From Dehalococcoidia bacterium (GTDB lineage Bacteria; Chloroflexota; Dehalococcoidia; Lucifugimonadales; Australimonadaceae), in the NCBI GenBank assembly GCA_021296055.1, contig JAGWBE010000001.1:1-57684 (forward strand): 57,684 nt of DNA. The letters are read 5' to 3'. Made by a program: the position numbers and the translations under genes. Under the pieces are notes generated by a model. It was not told the DNA's origin, searched no databases, and was given only the letters and a program-made list of their open reading frames with translations. This document shows, piece after piece, positions 1-12,830 of the stretch (position 1 is its first letter; the number at the start of each line of letters is the position of its first letter).

Positions 1-315
1 AACTTCGCCGATGCGACGGGAAACATCCTCAAATGACGGATGCGGATCGGTCTTGGCTTTAGCGTACAGCCAGGCGACAGGGTTGATGTCGCACGCCACG
101 GCGCGACGGCCCGACACCATCGCAACGTACGGAGCGGCACCACGTCCGCAGAAGGGGTCAAGCACCGTGTCGCCCGGATTGCTGAAGGCGCCGACCACTT
201 GGCGCGTGAACTCGATGGGGAACATCGCGTAGTAGGGCCCAAGGCATGCCCAGCGGCTCTCCGCCGTTCCAAAGCCGGCCAGCGCCGGCACGCTGCGCAG
301 GCCGCTGGCGCTCAT
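1..315 (-). CDS. DNA methyltransferase (amino-MTase, N6-adenine/N4-cytosine type). Only the 5' part is present; the gene runs off the left edge.
   Basis: Absent from the ORF track because there is no stop in the window. The reverse complement of 315..1 reads MSASGLRSVPALAGFGTAESRWACLGPYYAMFPIEFTRQVVGAFSNPGDTVLDPFCGRGAAPYVAMVSGRRAVACDINPVAW... The 'YYAMFP..(16 aa)..GDTVLDPFCGRGAA' block matches the motif X plus motif I (FxGxG AdoMet loop) of N6_N4-type MTases. The ATG at 315..313 overlaps the TGA at 317..315 of the upstream gene (ATGA). Confidence 0.7.
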   Translation of the reverse strand, partial: MSASGLRSVPALAGFGTAESRWACLGPYYAMFPIEFTRQVVGAFSNPGDTVLDPFCGRGAAPYVAMVSGRRAVACDINPVAWLYAKAKTDPHPSFEDVSRRIGEV

Positions 316-1637
316 CACTCTTCGAAGAGCTCCGCCAGCAAGCCGATGCCCGCCTTCAAGGGTATGGCGGCGTGCGCGTGGGCGCGCACCAGCGGGGCGA
401 AGCCGTCCTCGTAGAGGTAGGTGGAGAATTCGTCCATGATATCCAGCGCCTCGCCCAACCGTGGGTAAGCGGCTACTCCGACGCAGTCGCGGCTCTCCCC
501 TTCCGTGTTCACGATAGGCGTCATGACCACCGCATGCTGCCCCAGCCGGTTCTTATAGAGCACGCGGCGCCCATAGTCAGTTTCCACTCCATGGGCTTTA
601 GCCTCCTGAGGGCGCAAGGCGATGTGGCGGTGAGTGTACGCACGGTCGGGCGCCAGAGCCAACCCTGACTCGAGCCGCGCCCGCGGGCCTTCGTAGTCGC
701 TCTGGTCGAGCGCCTTCAGGTGTTCGAGGAACATGCCGGACTTCTCTACGCCGAAGAGCAGCACTCCGGGCCCACCGCGCGCCAAGGCCTGCGCGTGGAG
801 CCGGGCGACCTCGTTTTGCACATGGAGTTTCAGCCAGGCAGGCATGCCGAAGATGGCCAGTGGTCCGTCCATCACAAAAGCGGTTGTGCCAAAGGCGCTC
901 CACCAACCACGCCGCTCGAAGAAACGCATGATGTTGACCATAGCCAGGTGTTCCACGACCTGCCGCATAGCAGTGTAGGCCTGGGCAGAGGAGCCAAAGT
1001 CTTCGAACCGCTCGTGCAGCCGGAGGCTGTCTGTCTCGAAGATCTGCTCGCACCTTTCGCAAGCGCACTCGCCTATTCCCTCAAGGGCAGGAATGGTGTT
1101 GGAGCAATCATCCATCGGGCAAGGAAAGCGCCTAGACGGTGTGATAGCGCGCATCGTCTCAATCAGCGTCTCGTGTTCATCGTCTACTCTTCTACCAGCG
1201 AGCGCTTGGTGGACAGAGTAGCGGAAGAAGCGCTCCGGGGTATCATCAGCAACATCCTCGCGCACTACATTCCTGCCGGGCAGCACCGCGTCAAGCGTCC
1301 GGCAGTCCTCTATGTCGCGCATCGTGCTGGGCCGCGGGATTGAGCCAGGCGGGATATCCTTAAGTGCCTGGAGGTCGATGACAACAGCGGCGAGGTTTAG
1401 CAGCGCCGCCTCAGCCCCCGGGTAACCGATGCGGACGGGACTGGCGACCGTGGAACCGTCGATGACGATGATGCGGCTAATCGCGTCTTGACCCCGGGGC
1501 GGAGTCAGTGCCACGGGAGGCTCAACGGCCTCCTCGGGGCCGCCGTAGCGAATCGCGCCCTCGAAATCTCTGACGCTGTCGCTTGTGGTGAGCCGCCACA
1601 GCGATTCGCCAGTGGCAAACTCCTTCTCGTAGGGCAT
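315..1637 (-). CDS. NurA-like nuclease with an inserted Cys-rich zinc-ribbon
   Basis: 440 aa. The motif order 'IIVIDGST' (D60), 'FVMDGPLAIFG', 'LFGVEKSGMF' and C-terminal 'RAHAHAAI' is typical of the NurA domain. An insert 'CPMDDCSNTIPALEGIGECACERCEQ' (nt 1050..1121) looks like a zinc ribbon. The start overlaps the HerA-like stop (ATGA at 1639..1635). Confidence 0.7.
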   Translation of the reverse strand: MPYEKEFATGESLWRLTTSDSVRDFEGAIRYGGPEEAVEPPVALTPPRGQDAISRIIVIDGSTVASPVRIGYPGAEAALLNLAAVVIDLQALKDIPPGSIPRPSTMRDIEDCRTLDAVLPGRNVVREDVADDTPERFFRYSVHQALAGRRVDDEHETLIETMRAITPSRRFPCPMDDCSNTIPALEGIGECACERCEQIFETDSLRLHERFEDFGSSAQAYTAMRQVVEHLAMVNIMRFFERRGWWSAFGTTAFVMDGPLAIFGMPAWLKLHVQNEVARLHAQALARGGPGVLLFGVEKSGMFLEHLKALDQSDYEGPRARLESGLALAPDRAYTHRHIALRPQEAKAHGVETDYGRRVLYKNRLGQHAVVMTPIVNTEGESRDCVGVAAYPRLGEALDIMDEFSTYLYEDGFAPLVRAHAHAAIPLKAGIGLLAELFEE

Positions 1638-3793
1638 CAGGACTCCTGCGCTGGCGCAGTGAAGCGGTCGATCTGGACGGGCAGCGTGTAGGGGCTGGAC
1701 ATTGTTCGCACCTTGAGGAAGCCCGGCTCTTTCACCCGACGGATGCTGCCGCTGAAGTCGGCGAAGTCGTTGTACTGGTCTAGTTCGCGAGTCTCTCCAG
1801 TGCTGTTGAGGTGGGAGAGGAACCAGTTCTCGGTGTTGCGGAGAATGTTGCGCTGGATGGAGGATGGCTCTTGCGTGGAGTAGACCAGGCCGATGTTGAA
1901 CTTGGCGCCCTCCTTCGCCGTGCGCGCCCAGATGTTGCGAGTGTCCTCCTCGCCGCCGCGGGGCAAGAGTGTATGCGCTTCCTCAACGTAGATGATCATC
2001 GGGTCGGGCGGGAGGAAGAAGCCGTCGGAGGCTTTCCTCGGCCGGGTGAAGGTTTCCTGTTGCCGGGCGAATATCTTGCGCATGATGCGCTCCGCCGACT
2101 GCTCGTTCATAACCGGGTCGCCCAGCGCCTGGTCGAGAATCACCAGCCTGCCTGCCTCCATGTCGACGATAATCTCATCGGTGTAGTCCGCATTCCGGCT
2201 CGGGTCGTGCCACTCCCGGCACTCTCGCAACGCCTGAACTCCTCGGGTGTTTTCAAAGATGCGTAGTAAGCCAAGGAGCCGGTCATCGCTCCAGTTACGC
2301 CGATCGTGAGATGCCTGGTAGCGCCGATCGAACCTGTGACCATCTCCATTCCTTTCAAACCACTTGCTCAACTGGCGGCACAACTCCCTAGCAGCATTCC
2401 ATGACAATTCACCCTGCACTTCTGCTGTAAAACCGGACAGGAGAGGCTCGTCTTCCATGGCCCTTCGTACTTCGTCGCCGAAAAGGCCACGCACGGACAC
2501 ATTGGCGGTTGGGGGCTCGAATCCTGCTGCGGCCAGAATGGCTTGATAGACGAACACCGCGCGATGGTAGCGGACGTACTCGCCCCTATCGGTGATTCCC
2601 CCCGGCGCGGTCAGGTCGGTGCTGCGGAATGCCGCGATGTACGCCGCACTCTCGCTCTCAATGCGGCCATAGATAATCTGCTTGCCCATGTAGAGGGATT
2701 CCAGAGATTGGTGGAGGTCGTGGGCTGAGCTTGGCGGCTGCGACTGCGGCGGCAGCTCGCCCCCGAAGAAATTCACCTTAGTGATGCGCCGCCCCGGGTC
2801 GTAAGGGTGTGGCGTCAGGCCGTAGGTCACCACGTCTGACAAGTCGGCGCCTGGGAGATGCTTCACGTTGCGTAGGCAGCCGTCATCCTGCGGGTTGTCG
2901 TTGGCGTATTCCCCATTGGGGTCGATTATCAGCTGCGCGACGCGCTCAGAGGCATCCCCGCTGAGGCGCAGCTCGAAGACTGCCCGGGCGAGCGTCTTGA
3001 CGGTGTTGGACTTGCCGGTGCGGGTCATGCCGAACAGCGCCGTGCGCTGGGCCACCACGTCTCGCGTGGTCATCTGCACAGGGACGGACTCGGGGCGGCC
3101 TGCATCCAGCGAGGCAGCGTACTTGACCTCGCCGATGCGGACGCGCCCCGAGCCAGGTGCGCCGTCCCTGGTGAAATTGGCGATGCGTTCCAGCGCCACG
3201 CCTATGGGCTTGTAAATCTTCATTCCCTGCCCGGCGTAGAAGTTGTCGATATCGCTCCCAAAGGTCAAGCGCCACTCGCCGGATTCCGTAGAGTGAACCA
3301 TCCGAAAGGTGCCGAGTATGGCGCAGCGCAACCCTGCGAACCGCATCTGATTGAGGGTGAACTGGTCGGTAGTCCGGGGCTCGTCCCAGTTATAGAGGCT
3401 ATCGGAGGCGCGCTGCCCCGCTTGGAAGCGCGCCTGCTGCATCTCGATGTCATTGGGCAGCGTGCTGCTTCCCAGAACGCGAAGGAGCAGCAGTGAGGGC
3501 AGAGATTCGCCAGCCTCTCCATCACCGCCGTCGGGGGCCTGATCTCTCGCCGCTACTAGGAAGCAACCGTGGGGCACACCTCCGACCTGCTGCCGCATTG
3601 CGTCGTGCACCAAGACGTGCGCCTCGTCGAAGTCCATTCGGATGAGGTCGCCGACCAGCCAGTCGGGCTCCCGGAATGCCCTGACCTCGCCCTGCGCTGC
3701 CTCGGCGCGGCGGGCGGCCTCCTCGCGCTCCATCTCGGGCGCAAGGCGGCTCAGAGGGCCTGGGGATTCGCCTGGCGTGGAGGGAGTAGTCAC
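1637..3793 (-). CDS. HerA-like (DUF87, FtsK/HerA superfamily) ATPase
   Basis: 718 aa with a GTG start at 3793. Motifs in order: Walker A 'FGMTRTGKSN' (nt 3005..3034), 'LIIDPNGEY', Walker B 'MIIYVEEAH' (nt 1973..1999), 'GLVYSTQEPSSI' and 'NWFLSHLNS'. This is the hallmark HerA motif order. About 335 aa separate Walker A from Walker B. Confidence 0.8.
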   Translation of the reverse strand: MTTPSTPGESPGPLSRLAPEMEREEAARRAEAAQGEVRAFREPDWLVGDLIRMDFDEAHVLVHDAMRQQVGGVPHGCFLVAARDQAPDGGDGEAGESLPSLLLLRVLGSSTLPNDIEMQQARFQAGQRASDSLYNWDEPRTTDQFTLNQMRFAGLRCAILGTFRMVHSTESGEWRLTFGSDIDNFYAGQGMKIYKPIGVALERIANFTRDGAPGSGRVRIGEVKYAASLDAGRPESVPVQMTTRDVVAQRTALFGMTRTGKSNTVKTLARAVFELRLSGDASERVAQLIIDPNGEYANDNPQDDGCLRNVKHLPGADLSDVVTYGLTPHPYDPGRRITKVNFFGGELPPQSQPPSSAHDLHQSLESLYMGKQIIYGRIESESAAYIAAFRSTDLTAPGGITDRGEYVRYHRAVFVYQAILAAAGFEPPTANVSVRGLFGDEVRRAMEDEPLLSGFTAEVQGELSWNAARELCRQLSKWFERNGDGHRFDRRYQASHDRRNWSDDRLLGLLRIFENTRGVQALRECREWHDPSRNADYTDEIIVDMEAGRLVILDQALGDPVMNEQSAERIMRKIFARQQETFTRPRKASDGFFLPPDPMIIYVEEAHTLLPRGGEEDTRNIWARTAKEGAKFNIGLVYSTQEPSSIQRNILRNTENWFLSHLNSTGETRELDQYNDFADFSGSIRRVKEPGFLKVRTMSSPYTLPVQIDRFTAPAQES

Positions 3794-3806
3794 GCGCCCT
3801 ACCCTG

Positions 3807-4919
3807 CTACCACTGGACGAACATCGGCATGACGACGTGGACGTATGCTTCGTCGTCGACTTGGCGGACTACGCCGGGGCTGGAGGGGGAGGTCATCTCT
3901 AGGGCGACCTTCTCCTTGTCGAGGACGGCGAGCACGTCGGTGAGGTAGCGGGCGTTGAAGGCGATGCGCCCCTCGCCGCCCTCCACCTGCGCCTCCAGCT
4001 GCCCCTCGCTATCGCCGACCTCCTCGGCGCGGGAGGAGACGGTGAGGTGGCCTGGGGCGTTCTCGCCCGGCTCCATGCGGAGGCGGATGATGGCGAAGAT
4101 GGAGGCGGTGCGGGTTACGCGGCGGAGTTCGGCGAGGTCGACGACGGCGCGGGTGTCGTGCGCGGTGGGGACGAGTTGCTCGTAGTTGGGGAAGGTTCCC
4201 TGGATGAGCTGGGAGACGACCTCGATGTCCCTGAGGCGGAAGAGCACCTGGCTGCGCTGCGGCGTGATGACGATATCGATGGGCGCCTCGCCTTCGCTGA
4301 GGCGCTCGACTTCTTGCATAGTGCGGGCAGGGACGATGACGGTAATCTCCTCCTCGACGGGCTCGAGGAGGGGGGCGTGGTGGACGGCGAGGCGAAAGCC
4401 GTCGGCGGCGGCGAGGGTGAGGCGTTCGCCCTCGAAGTGCATGTTGACGCCGGTGAGCACGGGGCGGGAATCCTCGAAGGCGGCGGCGAAGACCACTTGC
4501 CGGATGGCGTCGCGCAGCGCTTTGGCCGCGATGCGGGTTACGGCGCCCTCGGTGGGCGTGGGGATGGGGGGGAATTCGCCCGCGTCGGCGCCGTGCATAG
4601 TGGCGTTGGTGCGATCGCCCTTGATCTCGATGCCCGTGCCCGCCTCGAGTGTCTTGACGCTGATGGTCTGGGGTTCGAGGGAGTTGATGAAGTCGGTGAG
4701 CAGGCGCGCGGGGATGGTGATGCCGCCCTCGGCCTCGACCTCGGCGCCGATCCACGTGCTGATGGCGATCTCGAGGTTGGTGGCGGAGAGCTTGATGCGG
4801 CCGGCGTCGGAGGCGATGAGGACGTGTTGGGTGATAGGCAGCGTGGTGCGGGTGGCGACGGCGCGCTGGACGATGCCGAGCCCTTGGCGGAGATTCTCCT
4901 GAAGGCAGTTCAGGTGCAT
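3807..4919 (-). CDS. dnaN: DNA polymerase III beta sliding clamp
   Basis: The sequence 'MHLNCLQENLRQGLGIVQRAVATRTTLPITQHVLIASDAGRIKLSATNLEIAIS...' shows the typical DnaN N-terminus and length (370 aa). I chose the internal ATG at 4919 rather than the ORF-track start at 4964. Confidence 0.95.
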   Translation of the reverse strand: MHLNCLQENLRQGLGIVQRAVATRTTLPITQHVLIASDAGRIKLSATNLEIAISTWIGAEVEAEGGITIPARLLTDFINSLEPQTISVKTLEAGTGIEIKGDRTNATMHGADAGEFPPIPTPTEGAVTRIAAKALRDAIRQVVFAAAFEDSRPVLTGVNMHFEGERLTLAAADGFRLAVHHAPLLEPVEEEITVIVPARTMQEVERLSEGEAPIDIVITPQRSQVLFRLRDIEVVSQLIQGTFPNYEQLVPTAHDTRAVVDLAELRRVTRTASIFAIIRLRMEPGENAPGHLTVSSRAEEVGDSEGQLEAQVEGGEGRIAFNARYLTDVLAVLDKEKVALEMTSPSSPGVVRQVDDEAYVHVVMPMFVQW

Positions 4920-5066
4920 GGGGCGTACCTCAATATGTTGTGGTTGGGGCGGCGAGCGGCGCAAGTATAGGCGGGAAGTCGAAGCGCTCGCAAGATGAAG
5001 GCGGCAGGGACGCGGCGCACGCCGTTCCAGAGGGAGGAGAAGGGAGTGAGAGCGGCGGCGTGCGGC

Positions 5067-5564
5067 CTACTGCCAGCCGCTGAGGAGCTCGACGAGCTGG
5101 TCGATTTGCTCGGGGGTAAGGGTTTCGCCGAAGTTCTGCGGCATCAAGTCGGGTTCGCAGTCGCCCGTGGGGCAGTCGGCGGCGAGCTCGGCGTTGGGGT
5201 CAAGGATGGAAAGGCGGATCGCGTCGGCGTCGAGGCGCGCGCCGATGTCGGAGAGGTCGGGACCGACCTGGCCGTTGGCCTGGGGGATGGACGCGACGCT
5301 GTGGCAAGCGCCGCATCCGGCAACCTGGACGAAGACGCGCGCGCCGCCCGTGAGGTTCGCGCCGCCGCCATCCACCGGGCCGGAGGGAGTGGGCGTGGGG
5401 ACGGGGGTGACGCCGGGCGCCTCGCACGGGCTGGCGACGAACACGCCGCCCTGTGCGACGAGGCATTGGTCGGCGTCGGGGTTAGGCTCCGTTCCGCAGG
5501 CTGCGGCGAGCGCCAGCACGGCTGCGGCAAGCAGCGTGGCGACAAGGGTTCTGGGGTGAAGCAA
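5067..5564 (-). CDS. c-type cytochrome, lipoprotein-anchored
   Basis: It has a signal/lipobox 'LLAAAVLALAAAC', the heme-binding motif 'CGACH', and a distal 'DLMPQNF' (Met ligand region). TTG start. Confidence 0.85.
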   Translation of the reverse strand: MLHPRTLVATLLAAAVLALAAACGTEPNPDADQCLVAQGGVFVASPCEAPGVTPVPTPTPSGPVDGGGANLTGGARVFVQVAGCGACHSVASIPQANGQVGPDLSDIGARLDADAIRLSILDPNAELAADCPTGDCEPDLMPQNFGETLTPEQIDQLVELLSGWQ

Positions 5565-6800: not shown

Positions 6801-7289
6801 ATGCAGTTCTGGGAGAAGGTGCGGCGGAACCACGGCTTGGAGCACGCGGCCATCACGCTGATGCTGCCCCACGCGCGGCAGAACCGCGTCGTCGCGGGCT
6901 ACTCGCTGCCCGGGGGATTCGTGGTGTTGGGCGATTTCGAGACGGAGCAGGTGGAGCGCTTCGCCCAGGAGGGGTTGGAGCGGATGCGCCAGGGGCAGAC
7001 CGACCTGGCGGTGTCGCCTTTCTGCGGTACGAACATCGTGGTGGCGGCGGCGCTAGCGACGCTCGGCGCGGTGGTGGCGCTGCGGTTCGGCGGGTTCGGC
7101 CTGCGGGGGCTGAACCGCGCCTTCTCGAACGCGACGCTCGCCCTGATGGCGTCGCGCCCCATCGGGCGCTTCGTACAGGAGCGCTACACCACGTCGGCCG
7201 ACGTGGGCGCGGCGTCCATCACCGGCGTAACGCGGCATGAAATCGGCGGCCTGACGGTGCACTGGGTGGCGACGAGGTTCGCGGCGTAA
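6801..7289 (+). CDS. Conserved hypothetical protein (NHGLEHA motif, hydrophobic core segment)
   Basis: 162 aa. A GAGGAG Shine-Dalgarno lies 5 nt upstream of the ATG. I can name no confident family. Confidence 0.5.
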   Translation: MQFWEKVRRNHGLEHAAITLMLPHARQNRVVAGYSLPGGFVVLGDFETEQVERFAQEGLERMRQGQTDLAVSPFCGTNIVVAAALATLGAVVALRFGGFGLRGLNRAFSNATLALMASRPIGRFVQERYTTSADVGAASITGVTRHEIGGLTVHWVATRFAA

Positions 7290-7300
7290 GGGCGGCGAGG

Positions 7301-7376
7301 TGGCATCCCCGGACGGATTCGAACCGTCGACCGTCTGCTTAGAAGGCAGCTGCTCTGTCCGCTGAGCTACGGGGAC
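7301..7376 (-). tRNA. tRNA-Arg (anticodon UCU)
   Basis: The reverse complement GTCCCCGTAGCTCAGCGGACAGAGCAGCTGCCTTCTAAGCAGACGGTCGACGGTTCGAATCCGTCCGGGGATGCCA folds as a cloverleaf. It has a 7-bp acceptor stem, anticodon loop CTTCTAA, a TTCGAAT T-loop, and an encoded CCA. Confidence 0.9.
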
Positions 7377-7466
7377 TTGCGCTGAATTATAGTAGTAACG
7401 CCTCCGGCGGCGGTCAACCGCCCCGCTTGACGTGCCCTGCCTGTGAAATTCCCGCGAGGAGTCGCT

Positions 7467-8246
7467 ATGGCCGCCACCCTGACCTACGAGACGAAAGGCG
7501 GCGTCGCCGTCCTCACGCTGCGGCGCGAGGAGCGGCGCAACGCCATCAACCGCGCGATGATCGCCGACCTGACAGAGGCGGTGGAAGCGTTCGAGCGAGA
7601 CGCGGCGGCGCGCGTGCTCATCGTAACGGGCGCGGGCAGCGCGTTCTCGGCGGGCGCGGACATCAAGGAGCGCGCCGAGAACGCGGGCGACATGTCCGTC
7701 CAGCGCACCTCGCTCCACATCTCGCCCCTCTTCCGCCGTCTAGAGTTGATGGACAAGGTGGTCATCGCGGCGATCAATGGTCCCGCCGTCGGGGGCGGGT
7801 GCGAGTTGGCGCTGGCGTGCGACCTGCGCGTCGCGGGGCGAAGCGCGGTGTTCGCGCTGCCCGAGGTGCGGCTCGGCATCCTGCCGGGAGCGGGCGGCAC
7901 CCAGCGCCTCCCGCGCGTCGTCGGCCCTGCCCGCGCCAAGGAGATGATGCTGCTCGCCCGCTACCTGGACGCGCCGGCCGCCCTCGCGTGGGGCCTGGTC
8001 AACGAAGTGGTGGACGACGCCGAACTGATGCCGCGCGCCCGCGCCATCGCCGCCGAGGTCATCGAGATGGCGCCGGTCGCGCTCGGCGTCATCAAGACGG
8101 CCGTGGACAAGGCGCAAGACATGGACCTAGACGCCGGCTTAGCGTTCGAGCAGGAGTGCTCGCAGGTCGTGGCGGCCACCGCCGACCGCGTCGAGGGCTA
8201 CCAGGCGTTCGTGGAGAAGCGCAAGCCGCGCTTCACCGGGCGATAG
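7467..8246 (+). CDS. Enoyl-CoA hydratase/isomerase (crotonase family)
   Basis: 'VAVLTLRREERRNAIN...VLIVTGAGSAFSAGADIKE...INGPAVGGGCELALACDLR'. A GAGGAG Shine-Dalgarno precedes the ATG at 7467. Confidence 0.9.
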   Translation: MAATLTYETKGGVAVLTLRREERRNAINRAMIADLTEAVEAFERDAAARVLIVTGAGSAFSAGADIKERAENAGDMSVQRTSLHISPLFRRLELMDKVVIAAINGPAVGGGCELALACDLRVAGRSAVFALPEVRLGILPGAGGTQRLPRVVGPARAKEMMLLARYLDAPAALAWGLVNEVVDDAELMPRARAIAAEVIEMAPVALGVIKTAVDKAQDMDLDAGLAFEQECSQVVAATADRVEGYQAFVEKRKPRFTGR

Positions 8247-8391
8247 GGCGCAGGGATTCGGGGGTTGGGGTTAATCGCTTGTCTCATACGTACTGAACAA
8301 GCACGGAGGTTATCGCCAAGGAGTTTGGGTGTGATACCCTGCGAAGCGACACACCGTCACACTCTTTAGGCCTAGTAGGAGGAATGCATCG

Positions 8392-9459
8392 ATGGTGACC
8401 CCTAAGCGACTGCTGACGCTAATGACGCTGCTGCTCGTTGCTCTCGCGGCAGCGGCTTGCGGCGGCGACTCGGAAGAGGCGCGCGGAGACACGCTCGGCG
8501 AGATCCTTGACCGCGGGAACCTGGTTTGCGGCATCAAGGCGGACACGCCGGGCTTCGGCGTGCTGAACCCCGATGGCACGGCGGACGGCAACGACGTTGA
8601 GTACTGCCGCGCGCTGGCGGCGGCAGTGTTCGGCGACAAGGACAAGGTTGAGTTCAAGGAGGCCACCTCCGCGAACCGCTTCGAGTTGCTGGCGGCGAAG
8701 GAGATCGACGTGCTGATTCGCACGACGACGTGGACGGCCAGCCGCGACGCGAACTTGAACGTGGCGTTTGCGCCGACGACCTTCTACGACGGCGCAGGCG
8801 TCATGGTGAAGGCGGACGCCAACGTGTCCAGCGTCAAGGACCTGAACGGGGCGACCATCTGCATCCTCGACGGCACGAGCACACAGGGCGCAGTGTCGGA
8901 CTTCTTCTCCGAGAACGGGCTCACCTACTCGGAGTTGACTCTCCAGGCCAACCCCGAGGTGCGCGCCTCCTTCATCAACGACCAGTGCGACGGTTGGTCG
9001 TCCGACAAGTCGCAGCTGGGCGGTCACCAGTTCACGCTGAAGGCCGACGGCGTCGACGCCGTTGTGCTGCCGGAGACGCTCTCGAAGGAGCCTCTGGGCC
9101 CGAGCGTGCGCGACTACGACTCCGAGTGGGAGGACGTGGTGCGCTGGGTGGTGAACGGGATGATCATCGCCGAGGAGCAGGGCGTGACGATGGGCAACGT
9201 GGGCCAGATGGCCGCGAACCCGCCCAACAACACCGTCGCGCGTCTGCTGGGCGTCGGCTTCCAGGGCGGCGCTCCGTCGAATCTGGGCATCGGCCATGGC
9301 AGGATCGACAGCACCTTCATGCAGGACGTGATCGCACAGGTCGGCAACTACGGCGAGGCGTACGAGCGCACGCTCGAGCGGGTCGGCCTGACGCGGGCGG
9401 GTTCGCCGAATGCGTCCTACCTGGACGGCGGGCTGCTCTACGCCCCGCCGATGCGCTAG
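8392..9459 (+). CDS. aapJ: General L-amino-acid ABC transporter substrate-binding lipoprotein
   Basis: Lipobox 'LAAAACGG'. The sequence 'LVCGIKADTPGFGVLNPDGTADGNDVEYCRALAAAVFGD...IDVLIRTTTWT' is AapJ/BztA-like. Confidence 0.8.
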   Translation: MVTPKRLLTLMTLLLVALAAAACGGDSEEARGDTLGEILDRGNLVCGIKADTPGFGVLNPDGTADGNDVEYCRALAAAVFGDKDKVEFKEATSANRFELLAAKEIDVLIRTTTWTASRDANLNVAFAPTTFYDGAGVMVKADANVSSVKDLNGATICILDGTSTQGAVSDFFSENGLTYSELTLQANPEVRASFINDQCDGWSSDKSQLGGHQFTLKADGVDAVVLPETLSKEPLGPSVRDYDSEWEDVVRWVVNGMIIAEEQGVTMGNVGQMAANPPNNTVARLLGVGFQGGAPSNLGIGHGRIDSTFMQDVIAQVGNYGEAYERTLERVGLTRAGSPNASYLDGGLLYAPPMR

Positions 9460-9540
9460 GCGGTCAACGCCGATCCGAGCGGATATCGCGAGGGGCGGGC
9501 AGTGTTGCCCGCCCCTCGCTTTTGATAGGTTAGGGCCGCG

Positions 9541-10707
9541 ATGAAGCAGCGCCTGCAAGACATCTGGCGCCACAAGCGCTCCCGCTACATGGCCGTCAAC
9601 GTGACGGTGGGGGCGCTGGGCGGAATCGTCGCCGGATACGTTGCCTATTCCATCGCGGTCAACTTCTTCGACTTCGACTTCCTATTCGCACCCTACGGCA
9701 GCCCCGATCGCAGTTCGATATTCCAGGCACTGGACATCGAGGCGAGCGACCCGCGCTGGCTGGGGATGCTGAAGGGGGCGGGGAACACGCTGTCGGTGGT
9801 GGGGTTCGCCATCGTCTCGGCGTCGCTGCTGGGGCTGGCCATCGGCGTGGCGCGGTTGACGGCGCACCCGCTGATGAACACGCTGGGCAACCTGTACGTG
9901 CAGACGTTCAGGAACCTGCCCTTGCTGCTCATCATGTTCTTCTTCGCCTTCGCGGTGTTTCGGTCGCTGCCGCAGATTGAGTCGCGCTCGGGCGTGGTGG
10001 GCGTGGTCTACGTGAGCAACCGGGGGCTGGCGTTGCCCTGGCTGGAGGCGGCGAGCTCGCTGTGGACGCTGTGGGCGCTCGCGCTGGCGGCGGCCGTGGC
10101 GTTGGCGTGGTTCGCGCGGCGTTGGCGCTTGCAGGAGGAGTTGCGCACGGGCCGGAGCACGCATCCGAACACGTGGGGCGTATGCGTATTCCTGTTCGTT
10201 GCGGCCGCGACCTACCTTGCGCTGGCGGCGCCGGTGCGGGTGACGCTGCCGGAGGTCACGCAGTCGGCCTCCGGTTTCTACACCTACGAGGGCGGGAACG
10301 TGTTGGGGTTAGGCTACATGAGCGCGTTCATCTCGTTGACGCTCTACTTCAGCGCCTTCATCGCGGAGATTGTGCGCGGATCGATCCAAGCGGTGCCGCA
10401 CGGACAGGTGGAGGCCGCGACGTCGCTGGGGCTGTCTCCGTATCAGCGCTTCACGCTGATTGTCCTGCCGCAGGCGCTGCGCATCATGATTCCGCTGCTG
10501 AACAACGAATACCAGAACACGAACAAGGACTCGACGCTGGCGCACGCGATCGCCTACGGCGAGATCGTGCTCATCTCTAACCGCATCGTGAACAACGCGG
10601 GCAATCTGCTGCAGACCTACATCTTCATCTTCCTCGTCTTCGTGCTGACGAACCTCATCATCTCTCTGGTGATGAACAGCATCAACAAGAGCGTGCGGAT
10701 CCGATGA
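9541..10707 (+). CDS. aapQ: Amino-acid ABC transporter permease (AapQ/BztB-like)
   Basis: 388 aa and polytopic. It carries the EAA-type loop 'VPHGQVEAATSLGLSPYQRFTLIVLPQALRIMIPLLNNEY'. Confidence 0.8.
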   Translation: MKQRLQDIWRHKRSRYMAVNVTVGALGGIVAGYVAYSIAVNFFDFDFLFAPYGSPDRSSIFQALDIEASDPRWLGMLKGAGNTLSVVGFAIVSASLLGLAIGVARLTAHPLMNTLGNLYVQTFRNLPLLLIMFFFAFAVFRSLPQIESRSGVVGVVYVSNRGLALPWLEAASSLWTLWALALAAAVALAWFARRWRLQEELRTGRSTHPNTWGVCVFLFVAAATYLALAAPVRVTLPEVTQSASGFYTYEGGNVLGLGYMSAFISLTLYFSAFIAEIVRGSIQAVPHGQVEAATSLGLSPYQRFTLIVLPQALRIMIPLLNNEYQNTNKDSTLAHAIAYGEIVLISNRIVNNAGNLLQTYIFIFLVFVLTNLIISLVMNSINKSVRIR

Positions 10708-12050
10708 TCGGGGCGCTGCCGAACGCCTCCGCCTTGTCGCGGCGCGCGGCCCACGCGCGAGCGCGGCTGTTCAACACGCGGACGAACACGGCCCTCAGCA
10801 TCGTCGCCATCGTCGTGGGCGGCGCGCTCGCCTTCCTGCTGGCGCGGTTCATCCTGTTTGAGGCCAACTGGGGCCTGGTGGCCATCAACCGCAAGCTCTT
10901 CTTCGTGGGCAGCTACCCGCCGGACGAGGCGTTCCGCATCTGGATAGCGGTGTTCATCACCGCCGTATTGGCGGCGCTCTCCTACGGCCTCTGGGGCGGC
11001 AGGCTGCGCCCCTACGCGATAGCCGTCGGCGTGACCGCGCTTCTCATCCTCACCTTGGGGCTGGGGACGGAGTTGCGCATCGAGGAGCGCCAGTACACGG
11101 AGGAGATCCAGTCGGCGTCGGGTCAGACGACGACGGTGAGCGGCATCGAACGCGAGCTGGTGTTCGACCGCGGCTGGGCGCCGACGTGGCTCTACGCGGT
11201 GTCGCTGGGCTTGGCGTTGCCCTTCGGAGCGCCGTGGCTGCTGATGGCGGCGGTCTTCGCGTTGTTGGTCGTCGGAGCGATGGCGGGGCGGCGGCTGACG
11301 CGCTGGAAGAGCAATCCCATCCTGCTTCAGTCGATAGGGGCGGCGTGGGTGCTGCTGATACCGGTCGTCGTGCTGCTGCAAGTGGGCGTGGGCGTTGACA
11401 AATGGGAGAGCGCCTTCCTTGACCTGCTGGTGTTCGCGGTGGGGGGGTTCTTCTCGTTCGTCATCGGGGTGTTCCTTGCCCTGGGACGGCGGTCGCCCTA
11501 CCGCGCCATCAGCGTAGCGTCGGTGACTTACATCGAGGTGGTGCGGGCGGCGCCGCTGCTGGTGTGGCTGCTGTTCGCCACTTTCTTGGAGGACGAGTTG
11601 GGGCCGGTGGGCGAGGCGTTCAGCAACATCTCGCTGACCTACCGCGTGATGGTCGTGTTCGCCTTCTTCGGCGGGGCGTACATCGCCGAGGTAGTGCGCG
11701 GCGGCTTGCAGTCGATACCGCGCGGCCAGTACGAGGCTGCGGACGCGATGGGGCTTTCGCCGGTGGAGAAGTACGCGGTGATCATCCTGCCGCAGGCGAT
11801 CCGGGCGGTGGTGCCGGCCATCATCGGGCGGTTCATTGCGTTGTGGAAGGACACCGCTTTGCTGGCGGCAGTGTCGTTGGTGAACACGTTGGAGAAGGCG
11901 AAGAAGGTGCTCGGCAGCCAGACGGACATCGCCGAGGGCGCGTTCTTCGAGATATACATCGTCGTCGGGCTCGTCTACTGGCTCGTCTCCTATCTGCTCT
12001 CGCGCCTGGGCGGAGCGGCGGAGACGCGCCTGCGCGTGGGCGCGCGGTAG
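10704..12050 (+). CDS. aapM: Amino-acid ABC transporter permease (AapM/BztC-like)
   Basis: 448 aa. 'IPRGQYEAADAMGLSPVEKYAVIILPQAIRAVVPAIIGRFIALWKDT'. It overlaps the upstream gene by 4 nt. Confidence 0.8.
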   Translation: MIGALPNASALSRRAAHARARLFNTRTNTALSIVAIVVGGALAFLLARFILFEANWGLVAINRKLFFVGSYPPDEAFRIWIAVFITAVLAALSYGLWGGRLRPYAIAVGVTALLILTLGLGTELRIEERQYTEEIQSASGQTTTVSGIERELVFDRGWAPTWLYAVSLGLALPFGAPWLLMAAVFALLVVGAMAGRRLTRWKSNPILLQSIGAAWVLLIPVVVLLQVGVGVDKWESAFLDLLVFAVGGFFSFVIGVFLALGRRSPYRAISVASVTYIEVVRAAPLLVWLLFATFLEDELGPVGEAFSNISLTYRVMVVFAFFGGAYIAEVVRGGLQSIPRGQYEAADAMGLSPVEKYAVIILPQAIRAVVPAIIGRFIALWKDTALLAAVSLVNTLEKAKKVLGSQTDIAEGAFFEIYIVVGLVYWLVSYLLSRLGGAAETRLRVGAR

Positions 12051-12077
12051 CGGCGAACGGGGCACAGGAGCGGAGCA

Positions 12078-12830
12078 ATGGCGACCGAGAGCAAGCGCGA
12101 AATCGTGCGGCTGGAGAAGGTGACGAAGCGGTTCGGCGACTTCACGGCGTTGAACGGCGTAGACATCTCGGTTACGGAGGGCGAGGTAGTGGCCATCATC
12201 GGGCCGTCCGGCTCGGGCAAGTCGACGCTTCTGCGCACTATCAACCAGCTGGAGCCGCACGACGAGGGGCGCATCTTCTTCGATGGAATGGAGTTGACGG
12301 ACGACAGCCGGACGCTGACGAAGATACGGGCGGAAACGGGGATGGTGTTCCAGCAGTTCAACCTGTTCCCGCACCTGACGGTGCTGCGCAACATCGCGCT
12401 CGCCCCGCAGAAGGTGCATCACCGGCCGGAGCAGGAGGCGGAGGAGCGCGCGCTCCAGTTGCTGGACCGAGTCGGCATCGTGGAGCAGGCGGAGAAGTAC
12501 CCCGGGCAGCTATCGGGCGGGCAACAGCAGCGCGTGGCCATCGCGCGGGCGCTGGCGATGGACCCGAAGCTGATGATGTTCGACGAGCCGACCTCGGCGC
12601 TCGACCCGGAGATGATCAACGAGGTGTTGAAGGTGATGACGGAGTTGGCGGCGTCGGGCATGACGATGATCTGCGTTACGCACGAGATGGGGTTCGCGCG
12701 GAACGCGGCCAACCGCGTCATCTTCATGGACGAAGGGGAAATCGTGGAAATCGGGACGTCGGCGGAGTTCTTCACGACTCCGCGCGAGCCGCGCACCAAG
12801 ACGTTCCTCGACCAAATCCTGACGCACTAG
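12078..12830 (+). CDS. aapP: Amino-acid ABC transporter ATP-binding protein
   Basis: Walker A 'GPSGSGKST', signature '[15 protein letters not shown]', Walker B '[12 protein letters not shown]'. Confidence 0.9.

Follow-up and report, generated by a model that had tools for sequence, protein, structure and literature searches.

TdpABC is the closest described counterpart of the locus treated here. It is described as a third phosphorothioate restriction-modification (R-M) system, occurs in thermophiles, and needs no gene but tdpC for the modification itself. An et al. (Nat Chem Biol 2025) reportedly found that a HerA-like hexamer, TdpA, and a NurA-like dimer, TdpB, translocate on unmodified DNA and degrade it, and phosphorothioate on the host DNA is said to block both translocation and cleavage by TdpAB. 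Our locus is a cassette of three genes on the minus strand, at positions 1-3793 of a 57,684-nucleotide stretch of Dehalococcoidia DNA (contig JAGWBE010000001.1, contig positions 1 to 57,684; this whole stretch is called the window below). It codes for a HerA-clade ATPase, a predicted NurA-family nuclease and a DNA methyltransferase (MTase), and is most likely a previously undescribed, methylation-based version of a Tdp-type system. The likeness to TdpABC lies in a set of three genes that brings DNA modification together with a HerA-like hexameric ATPase and a nuclease of NurA type, with the TdpA-like and TdpB-like genes adjacent in the cassette. TdpA is the nearest solved relative of our ATPase and TdpB that of our nuclease (PDB 8wet, 8wfd, 8y1k), and the MPYxGE, DG, DGxLA and AHxxAS blocks are common to the nuclease and TdpB. 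In contrast to TdpABC, an N6_N4-family TSPPY methyltransferase is present instead of the phosphorothioation enzyme TdpC, the nuclease has a zinc-ribbon insert of about 70 amino acids (aa), and the ATPase carries about 70 extra residues from Walker A to Walker B. In Foldseek alignments the ATPase shares only 17-19% identity, and the nuclease 14%, with its Tdp counterpart. No TdpC was seen as third partner, as every locus has an N6_N4 methyltransferase in this place and the flanks are variable; this is judged from gene content, with no direct search by a TdpC sequence. The original prediction had proposed that a HerA-NurA machine serves as the restriction module of a methylation-gated system that matches no named one. 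The parts and the context are borne out, but with TdpABC as an already named and solved precedent, and with TdpA and TdpB as the closest solved relatives, the system is less novel than was first thought. Our full-text literature searches found no paper on a methyltransferase-HerA-NurA defence system.

Other described systems share some of the parts. The operon of ICETh1 (an integrative and conjugative element, ICE) of Thermus thermophilus codes for Tth111II, a NurA-like protein (377 aa), TdtA and a PF01555 methylase (410 aa) (PMC5365140). Compared by family only, this mobile element has an operon with the three protein families of the cassette, but the gene order is other, there is an extra Type IIG restriction enzyme, and the operon belongs to an ICE with an integrase (PMC5365140). 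The canonical HerA-NurA end-resection complex (Sulfolobus, Pyrococcus/Thermococcus, Deinococcus) has the same folds and the same pairing of motor and nuclease. It has no methyltransferase, however, while the cassette proteins are far under the NCBIfam equivalog cut-offs and the cassette is mobile. A reference title in PMC5365140 describes the archaeal HerA-NurA genes as often clustered with mre11 and rad50. Sir2-HerA (Nezha) and DUF4297-HerA likewise join a HerA-clade ATPase to an effector in a compact defence operon, and their ATPases match ours in structure with E about 1e-13. The effector of the cassette is instead a predicted NurA-family nuclease, and neither it nor any of 54 relatives has a PADLOC match. 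The presence of a modification enzyme in the cassette implies marking of self and non-self, unlike the infection-triggered suicide of Sir2-HerA and DUF4297-HerA.

Identity with other systems was rejected. MADS is also linked to methylation, and PADLOC mad8 matches the ATPase (E 1.5e-12) and mad2 the MTase (E 1e-6), but it is an eight-gene mad1-mad8 operon against three genes here, and these two matches are remote and at the domain level. MANTIS is unrelated, and papers on N4-methylcytosine (m4C) R-M in D. radiodurans are not relevant, as HerA/NurA are named there in a reference only. A classical Type I, II or III R-M system was taken to have a nuclease of PD-(D/E)xK, HNH, PLD or GIY-YIG kind, with a motor of superfamily 2 (SF2) helicase type in Types I and III. 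Our nuclease has instead a predicted NurA RNase-H-like fold and the motor is a HerA-clade ring ATPase. Within the PADLOC R-M models, only the MTase of the trio is matched.

Organization of the cassette

The genes and their junctions are as follows.

Positions 3793..1637, minus strand: HerA-clade (TdpA-like) ring ATPase, 718 aa, GTG start.
Positions 1637..315, minus strand: predicted divergent NurA-family (TdpB-like) nuclease, 440 aa, assigned by fold and transitive homology.
Positions 315..1, minus strand: N6_N4-family DNA methyltransferase, N-terminal 105 aa, assigned by Pfam and cut at the window edge.
Positions 1639..1635, minus strand: TGATG stop/start overlap between the ATPase and nuclease genes, as read out from the sequence.
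Positions 317..313, minus strand: TGATG stop/start overlap between the nuclease and MTase genes, as read out from the sequence.

The calls of open reading frames (ORFs) agree with the three minus-strand genes as they were first placed, including the truncation of the third by the window edge. The two overlaps had been proposed at these same coordinates as ATGA. The coordinates hold, but both junctions read TGATG, in which the last base of the stop codon is also the first base of the start codon. NCBI lists the 440-aa protein as J4F32_00010, a hypothetical protein in a Dehalococcoidia metagenome-assembled genome (MAG), while an exact-sequence look-up gave no entry for the ATPase. If this tag is read as the second gene of the contig, the window begins at the contig end and has no further sequence to its left. 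It was suggested earlier that more components may lie beyond the left edge. This was not upheld, since in the relatives the operon ends with the MTase (about 365-400 aa) and the genes that follow it are variable, so that only about 270 MTase codons are expected to the left of the window.

ATPase

Positions 3031..3008, minus strand: Walker A motif GMTRTGKS, aa 255-262 of the translation, invariant in 41 homologues.
Positions 1999..1973, minus strand: Walker B motif MIIYVEEAH, aa 599-607 of the translation, invariant in 41 homologues.

Walker B is followed by the HerA-type STQEPSS and NWF motifs, and thus the Walker A, the Walker B (hhhhEEAH) and the C-terminal STQxPS block stand in HerA order and align to the TdpA/HerA motifs. 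All of the HerA-type, NurA-type and zinc-ribbon motifs listed in the original prediction are present on the translations, and those verified are invariant or nearly so across 40-54 homologues. The 718-aa protein had been taken for a HerA/DUF87 ATPase and the profiles agree: Pfam DUF87 (PF01935) matches residues 235-303 with 38.2 bits (cut-off 23.2), and the HerA models of PADLOC and NCBIfam match at about 1e-13. Against the NCBIfam equivalogs NF040819, NF042943 and NF042944 it reached 50, 43 and 23 bits, the cut-offs being 970, 800 and 850, and by the NCBIfam rule it is an orthologue of neither the repair HerA nor the anti-phage HerA.

Among PDB sequences the closest match is TdpA 8wet_A (E 1.6e-15), followed by Thermococcus HerA (1e-9) and Sulfolobus HerA (2e-8). 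An AlphaFold2 model was built on an alignment with 41 homologues, with a predicted local distance difference test score (pLDDT) of 75. A Foldseek search with this model placed TdpA chains in all of the top six ranks (E 1.3e-19 to 4.2e-18, TM-score about 0.65 on the target), then archaeal HerA, and then the ATPases of the anti-phage Sir2-HerA and DUF4297-HerA. The alignments to TdpA, T. kodakarensis HerA and S. solfataricus HerA have about 700 columns (E 1e-19 to 1e-14) and cover the chain as one piece, and the HerA fold is thus predicted to span the whole ATPase, presumably with its N-terminal barrel.

The spacing from K261 in Walker A to E604 in Walker B is 343 aa. An unusually long insert had been noted here, and its length is confirmed by this measurement. 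In TdpA the corresponding spacing is about 274 aa, as counted through HMMER alignments, so the long spacer is a feature of the HerA clade that is enlarged in the window ATPase. In Sulfolobus HerA the Walker B is at what we take to be E356, with a spacing of about 200 aa.

Nuclease

Positions 1463..1452, minus strand: IDGS, aa 59-62, from translation and alignments; D60 is invariant and the putative first catalytic aspartate.
Positions 1121..1050, minus strand: zinc ribbon CPMDDC...CACERC with C173, C178, C191 and C193/C196; the cysteines are at least 90% conserved.
Positions 1034..1008, minus strand: TDSLRLHER helix right after the zinc ribbon, from translation and the diverse alignment; D203 is invariant.
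Positions 872..855, minus strand: MDGPLA, aa 256-261, from translation and alignments; D257 is invariant and the motif aligns to DGRLA of TdpB.
Positions 746..735, minus strand: EKSG, from translation.
Positions 383..366, minus strand: C-terminal AHAHAA, aa 419-424, with a conserved histidine; it aligns to EAHGRAS of TdpB.

The original prediction had called this protein NurA-like, and the direct comparison did not bear this out. The window nuclease has no match among the models of Pfam, PADLOC or NCBIfam at E up to 1, except for one at chance level. The nuclease family as a whole has no matching model in PADLOC 2.0.0, where 54 relatives were compared, or in NCBIfam release 20. It is by way of the relatives and of the fold that the assignment stands. 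Two alignments were used, one of close nuclease homologues (A1) and the other of 54 diverse full-length members (A2), and a phmmer search over the full library returned 516 cluster representatives of the family. Of the 54 diverse relatives, 19 match Pfam NurA (PF09376), the best with E 1.3e-25, and some plasmid homologues carry the annotation 'DNA double-strand break repair nuclease NurA'. The A1 profile gave nothing meaningful for the nuclease against PDB sequences. The A2 profile matched TdpB 8wet_G with E 1.3e-5 in three collinear pieces: an N-terminal one that holds MPYxGE and DG, one with DGxLA, and a C-terminal one with AHxxAS. The IDGS of the nuclease aligns to the DG of TdpB.

The AlphaFold2 model of the nuclease has a pLDDT of 79, and about 91-92 in the zinc-ribbon region. 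Its best Foldseek match is TdpB 8wfd_G (E 5.5e-5; TM-score 0.47 when normalised by the query and 0.56 by the target), and D. radiodurans NurA, S. solfataricus NurA, T. kodakarensis NurA and TM1739 come after it. Eight of the top ten matches are TdpB, NurA of HerA-NurA complexes or stand-alone NurA; the remaining entries are TM1739 (a putative RNase-H-like nuclease), found twice, and TREX1, found once, and the E-values of the list go from 5.5e-5 to 9e-2. We therefore predict, from transitive homology and the modelled fold, that the 440-aa protein is a NurA-family nuclease with an RNase-H-like fold. D60, D203, D257 and K299 are invariant in the diverse alignment and H420 is at least 90% conserved. 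The profile alignment pairs D60, D257 and the block with the histidine with residues of TdpB, and these are candidate catalytic residues. Judged by the lengths in the alignment, TdpB is about 75 residues shorter over the zinc-ribbon segment, and the zinc ribbon would accordingly be an insert relative to TdpB.

It may be added that the two ends of the nuclease, residues 1-12 (MPYxxEFA) and 407-440 (YLYEDGFAPLVRAHAHAAIPL), are strongly conserved and yet have a pLDDT below 50, while the core is modelled with confidence. The N-terminal MPYxGE is common to the nuclease and TdpB. These termini possibly become ordered only within a complex, as elements of an interface or of the active site.

Methyltransferase

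Positions 159..139, minus strand: motif I DPFCGRG, for binding of S-adenosylmethionine, aa 53-59 of the translation.

The fragment matches Pfam N6_N4_Mtase (PF01555) with 38.8 bits (cut-off 26.7) at profile positions 160-214, that is, at the C-terminal end of the profile and through motif I. The reading of the third gene as an amino-methyltransferase with motif I is thus confirmed by profile and motif alike. Full-length relatives have about 365-400 aa, and in 81 of 81 the DPFxGRG of motif I lies near residue 55 and the TSPPY of motif IV near residue 250. Motif IV follows motif I after about 190 residues, the reverse of the order in the Pfam model and in solved beta-class enzymes, and by this motif order the MTase appears to be a circularly permuted enzyme of the N6_N4 family. 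The best matches among solved enzymes are, in order, T. thermophilus TTHA0409 (2zie), a DNA cytosine-N4 methyltransferase (8s9n/8s9m), CcrM and M.PvuII. An SPPY motif IV is typical of N4-cytosine methyltransferases, so the product of the MTase is probably N4-methylcytosine.

Conservation and mobility of the trio

One genome per species was scanned for 185,579 species, in which 227 stretches code for a relative, and 80 loci were fetched. The order ATPase-nuclease-MTase is found by tblastn in about 80 of 84 loci, and the carriers span many bacterial phyla, mostly as MAGs, so that the trio is indeed kept as a unit across phyla, as the proposed defence role had led one to look for. In most relatives the cassette genes overlap or are separated by gaps of at most 20 nt. 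Where the nuclease and MTase genes meet, they share 4 nt in 45 loci and 1 nt in 11 loci, and all three genes are intact in 58 of the 76 loci that lie away from a contig edge. In the annotated neighbourhoods, the genes after the MTase vary among genomes. The nuclease identity is 75-78% among MAGs of Dehalococcoidia, Gemmatimonadaceae, Thermoanaerobaculia, Holophagales and Latescibacterota, and further carriers are found in Acidimicrobiia, Caldilineaceae, Pseudomonadales, Paracoccaceae, Nitrospirales, Planctomycetota, Bradyrhizobium japonicum and Micromonospora. Of all these carriers, B. japonicum SZCCT0231 and Micromonospora sp. CPCC 205539 are the two that are in culture.

The pairwise identities of ATPase and nuclease correlate with a Spearman coefficient of 0.93, as expected for subunits of one complex, and those of either with the MTase at about 0.43. 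Recent MTase clusters correspond one-to-one with the core, but deeper MTase clades cross the ATPase-nuclease clades.

The GC content of the cassette is 63.1% (58-66.5% per 400-nt window), against 67.7% for dnaN and 69.4% for the remaining contig, and it is lower than in all 251 same-sized windows of the contig. A drop relative to dnaN had been described from hand counts, and its direction is correct but its size was overstated (52-58% against 70-75%). The antisense ORFs, said to be far fewer here, are in fact shorter (81-207 aa against 238-307 aa over dnaN) and not absent. Of 67 loci compared among the relatives, 54 have flanks that are richer in GC than the cassette; the cassette differs from its flanks by a median of -5.6 points and by as much as -19.5. 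Presence of dnaN within 10 kb was found in 1 of about 90 fetched loci (L001). The possibility that the trio is kept at native GC beside dnaN throughout the lineage, which would have meant housekeeping repair, is therefore removed. This one locus (ENA ERZ25069113 contig_18, 7048-12488) is the closest relative, 89% identical, at the same dnaN-side site and in the same synteny, and it looks decayed: its ATPase is without residues 229-334, Walker A included, and its MTase is frameshifted near residue 272, while the nuclease is intact. A GmrSD_N+HNH gene and a ResIII gene lie downstream of it; the decay could reflect an assembly error.

Some loci stand beside housekeeping genes (smpB, ispG, recR-dnaX), and many neighbourhoods hold an MjaI-type R-M pair, HEPN/MNT, PIN/Phd, Type III Res+Mod, HsdR, MTase-HNH fusions, GmrSD or transposases. 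A survey for defence-island surroundings, which the original prediction had in view, thus gave neighbourhoods that are variable and often contain R-M, toxin-antitoxin or transposase genes. On the whole the cassette is a complete, self-contained and horizontally mobile three-gene unit.

The family also reaches beyond these bacterial loci. An archaeal plasmid of Halorarius halobius holds all three families in the same order, with identities of 29% for the ATPase (E 2e-77), 26% for the nuclease (E 4e-40) and 26% for the MTase (E 2e-21), and its MTase has the layout DPFxGxG...TSPPY as in the bacterial relatives. The metagenomic relative P0156, whose nuclease is 30% identical and matches Pfam NurA directly, has the same ATPase-nuclease-MTase arrangement, and an MTase of the same family overlaps its nuclease stop codon. 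In two temperate phages of Vibrio cyclitrophicus and at one prophage end from IMG/VR, the ATPase-nuclease pair adjoins the integrase, and the adjacent methylase is a D12 enzyme (Dam-like, DPPY) on the opposite strand in place of the SPPY MTase. We regard a position at the integrase side as typical for prophage-borne defence genes. These loci include L090:1-5751 (Vibrio phage 10N.286.54.E5_PE002, PQ189353.1), where the ATPase is annotated as two coding sequences of 424 and 310 aa, and L094:1-3601 (IMG/VR UViG_2627853925_000003). The scan of viral contigs with A1 returned two prophage-end loci only, which indicates that the cassette is not typically phage-borne. On the Tolypothrix sp. PCC 7910 plasmid NZ_CP050441.1 (L092:3805-10194), a DUF87 ATPase (31% identity) is paired with an annotated NurA, and this locus may be a different system on the same core. 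Behind the pair come a small gene for a hypothetical protein and then one for an 816-aa 'exonuclease domain-containing protein', and there is no methyltransferase.

Fused genes were seen in a few loci: ATPase with nuclease in P0275 (1159 aa, ENA), in L007:7751-11329 and possibly in L081:8795-11350, and nuclease with MTase in L057:10001-12487. If real, they support physical coupling; alternatively they may be single-base errors of long reads at the overlapping stop/start. In a Caldilineaceae MAG (OX638330.1, L004:4076-7483), the gene just ahead of the ATPase, in the same orientation, codes for a 1135-aa protein with no Pfam match. This protein is about as large as Tth111II (1106 aa), the Type IIG enzyme that comes before the NurA-TdtA-methylase genes in ICETh1, and none like it was seen at this place in the other annotated loci. 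Many carriers have names like those of sponge symbionts (Poriferisodalis, Poriferisocius, Porisulfidus and Entotheonella; also Caldilineaceae, Latescibacterota and Acidimicrobiia), and these record names suggest that the cassette circulates in sponge microbiomes.

Proposed mechanism and alternative explanations

We consider it fairly probable that the cassette is a methylation-gated, Tdp-like defence system of the R-M type, built on a TdpAB-like core. Its defence activity, the formation of a complex, the modified base and the reading of the mark we infer by analogy. The MTase would mark the host DNA, probably as N4-methylcytosine. A hexamer of the ATPase and a dimer of the nuclease would join in one complex, like HerA-NurA and TdpAB, and this complex would thread duplex DNA with ATP and shred DNA that is unmarked. 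On host DNA the methyl marks would stall the motor or silence the nuclease, in parallel with TdpAB. The loose coupling of the MTase and the swap of the methylase in the prophages fit a reading of the mark without a matched recognition sequence.

A wider proposal, which we hold as tentative and on balance doubt, is that TdpAB-like shredders belong to one superfamily of restriction modules, present in Bacteria and Archaea, whose self mark can be exchanged. In the branch of the cassette the ring or the zinc ribbon would, on its way along the DNA, sense the density of base methyls and not a matched sequence. The mark would be set by an SPPY MTase (probably as m4C) here and on the haloarchaeal plasmid, by a Dam-like enzyme in the Vibrio prophages, and as phosphorothioate in Tdp. 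Reading of mark density would explain the loose tie of the MTase to the ATPase-nuclease lineage and, if true, would be the first methyl-sensing ring-translocase restriction mechanism.

Several points weigh against a methylation-gated defence system. The nuclease is only distantly linked to NurA and TdpB (Foldseek E 5.5e-5, TM-score 0.47/0.56, profile E 1.3e-5). The mark of Tdp is on the backbone, where the ring touches it directly, whereas the mark of the cassette would be on a base. The loosely coupled history of the MTase (Spearman 0.43) would be hazardous to the host if the enzymes were a sequence-matched R-M pair, and this loose coupling, along with the methylase swap in prophages, equally feeds the view that the MTase is not the gatekeeper. 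Decay with a damaged ATPase or nuclease and an intact MTase was counted in 14 loci against 2 for the reverse, an asymmetry in the expected direction that is not significant (length-adjusted binomial P about 0.2, hand calculation). The flank visible in the window is housekeeping (dnaN, a cytochrome c-like protein and tRNA-Arg) with no defence island. In the searched literature no experiment on the trio was found, and ICETh1, the only experimentally studied operon with the three families, is assigned to DNA donation (PMC5365140).

DNA donation is the main rival. Here the trio would be a module of 'transjugation'-type secretion, as proposed for ICETh1, in which the NurA-like nuclease and TdtA, a HerA/FtsK-type ATPase, process chromosomal DNA and pump it out of the donor, with a co-operonic N4/N6 methylase. 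The ICETh1 operon has the same three protein families, knock-outs of tdtA and nurA abolish or strongly reduce donation in Thermus (PMC5365140), and later work still calls ICETh1 a DNA secretion system. Yet NurA precedes the ATPase in Thermus, unlike the order in the cassette, and neither a Type IIG enzyme nor an integrase nor att repeats accompany the trio in the inspected loci. Only three genes are conserved there, with no fourth partner, hence no conserved membrane or export component. Among solved proteins, those nearest to the cassette serve in defence (TdpA and TdpB), and the Thermus phenotype is itself compatible with a primary defence role. We regard donation as quite improbable. Somewhat in the same range, and likewise unlikely, is an infection-triggered HerA-effector system of the Sir2-HerA or DUF4297-HerA kind. 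A phage cue would then set off indiscriminate DNA degradation (abortive infection), and the MTase would be a regulatory or independent companion. That the ATPase matches anti-phage HerA models and structures agrees with this, as do the loosely coupled MTase lineage, the different D12/Dam-like methylase on the opposite strand beside the Vibrio prophage core, and the absence of a methylase beside the core on the Tolypothrix plasmid. It is difficult to reconcile, however, with an MTase that is co-oriented and usually overlaps by stop/start in nearly all loci, down to 30% nuclease identity and on the archaeal plasmid. In addition, TdpA and TdpB outrank every Sir2-HerA and DUF4297-HerA entry for both proteins, and the nuclease has no match to a PADLOC effector model.

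The third explanation is housekeeping, namely end resection of double-strand breaks by HerA-NurA beside dnaN with an orphan MTase adjacent, and we hold this to be close to refuted. In archaea and Deinococcus, HerA and NurA are known to act as a pair in DNA repair, some plasmid homologues are annotated as double-strand break repair NurA, and the cassette begins 13 nt after a replication gene. However, only 227 stretches in the collection of 185,579 species code for a relative, near-identical copies are found in unrelated phyla, and the GC content of the cassette is foreign to its flanks. The adjacency to dnaN is shared by one near relative only, which has lost Walker A and has a frameshifted MTase. 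The score to the repair-HerA equivalog of NCBIfam is 50 bits against the cut-off of 970, and neither Mre11 nor Rad50 was seen in the inspected neighbourhoods.

Should the methylation-gated defence system be confirmed, the principle of Tdp, a HerA-NurA shredder repelled by a mark, would be extended from phosphorothioation of the backbone to methylation of bases. It would be an R-M class with a NurA nuclease and a HerA-clade motor, unlike Types I-IV, BREX, DISARM and MADS, and a defence cassette that moves freely between unrelated phyla. A name and function would also be given to a family of more than 500 clusters at 50% identity, now 'hypothetical' and without a Pfam, NCBIfam or PADLOC model, and the NurA-TdtA-methylase operon of Thermus ICETh1 would merit a second look.

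Flanking region of the window

The GTG start of the ATPase gene is 13 nt past the stop codon of dnaN. In a scan for promoters and terminators, none was found between dnaN and the ATPase gene, with nothing above chance. The sole sigma-70-like promoter match within positions 1-5400 is at 4993..4964, just upstream of dnaN. Because the gap between dnaN and the ATPase gene is only 13 nt, the cassette may be transcribed by read-through from dnaN. The dnaN gene itself has its ATG at 4922 and its stop at 3807, with no dnaA upstream of it; an ORF for a cytochrome c-like putative lipoprotein is found upstream at 5564..5067, and tRNA-Arg(TCT) at 7301-7376.

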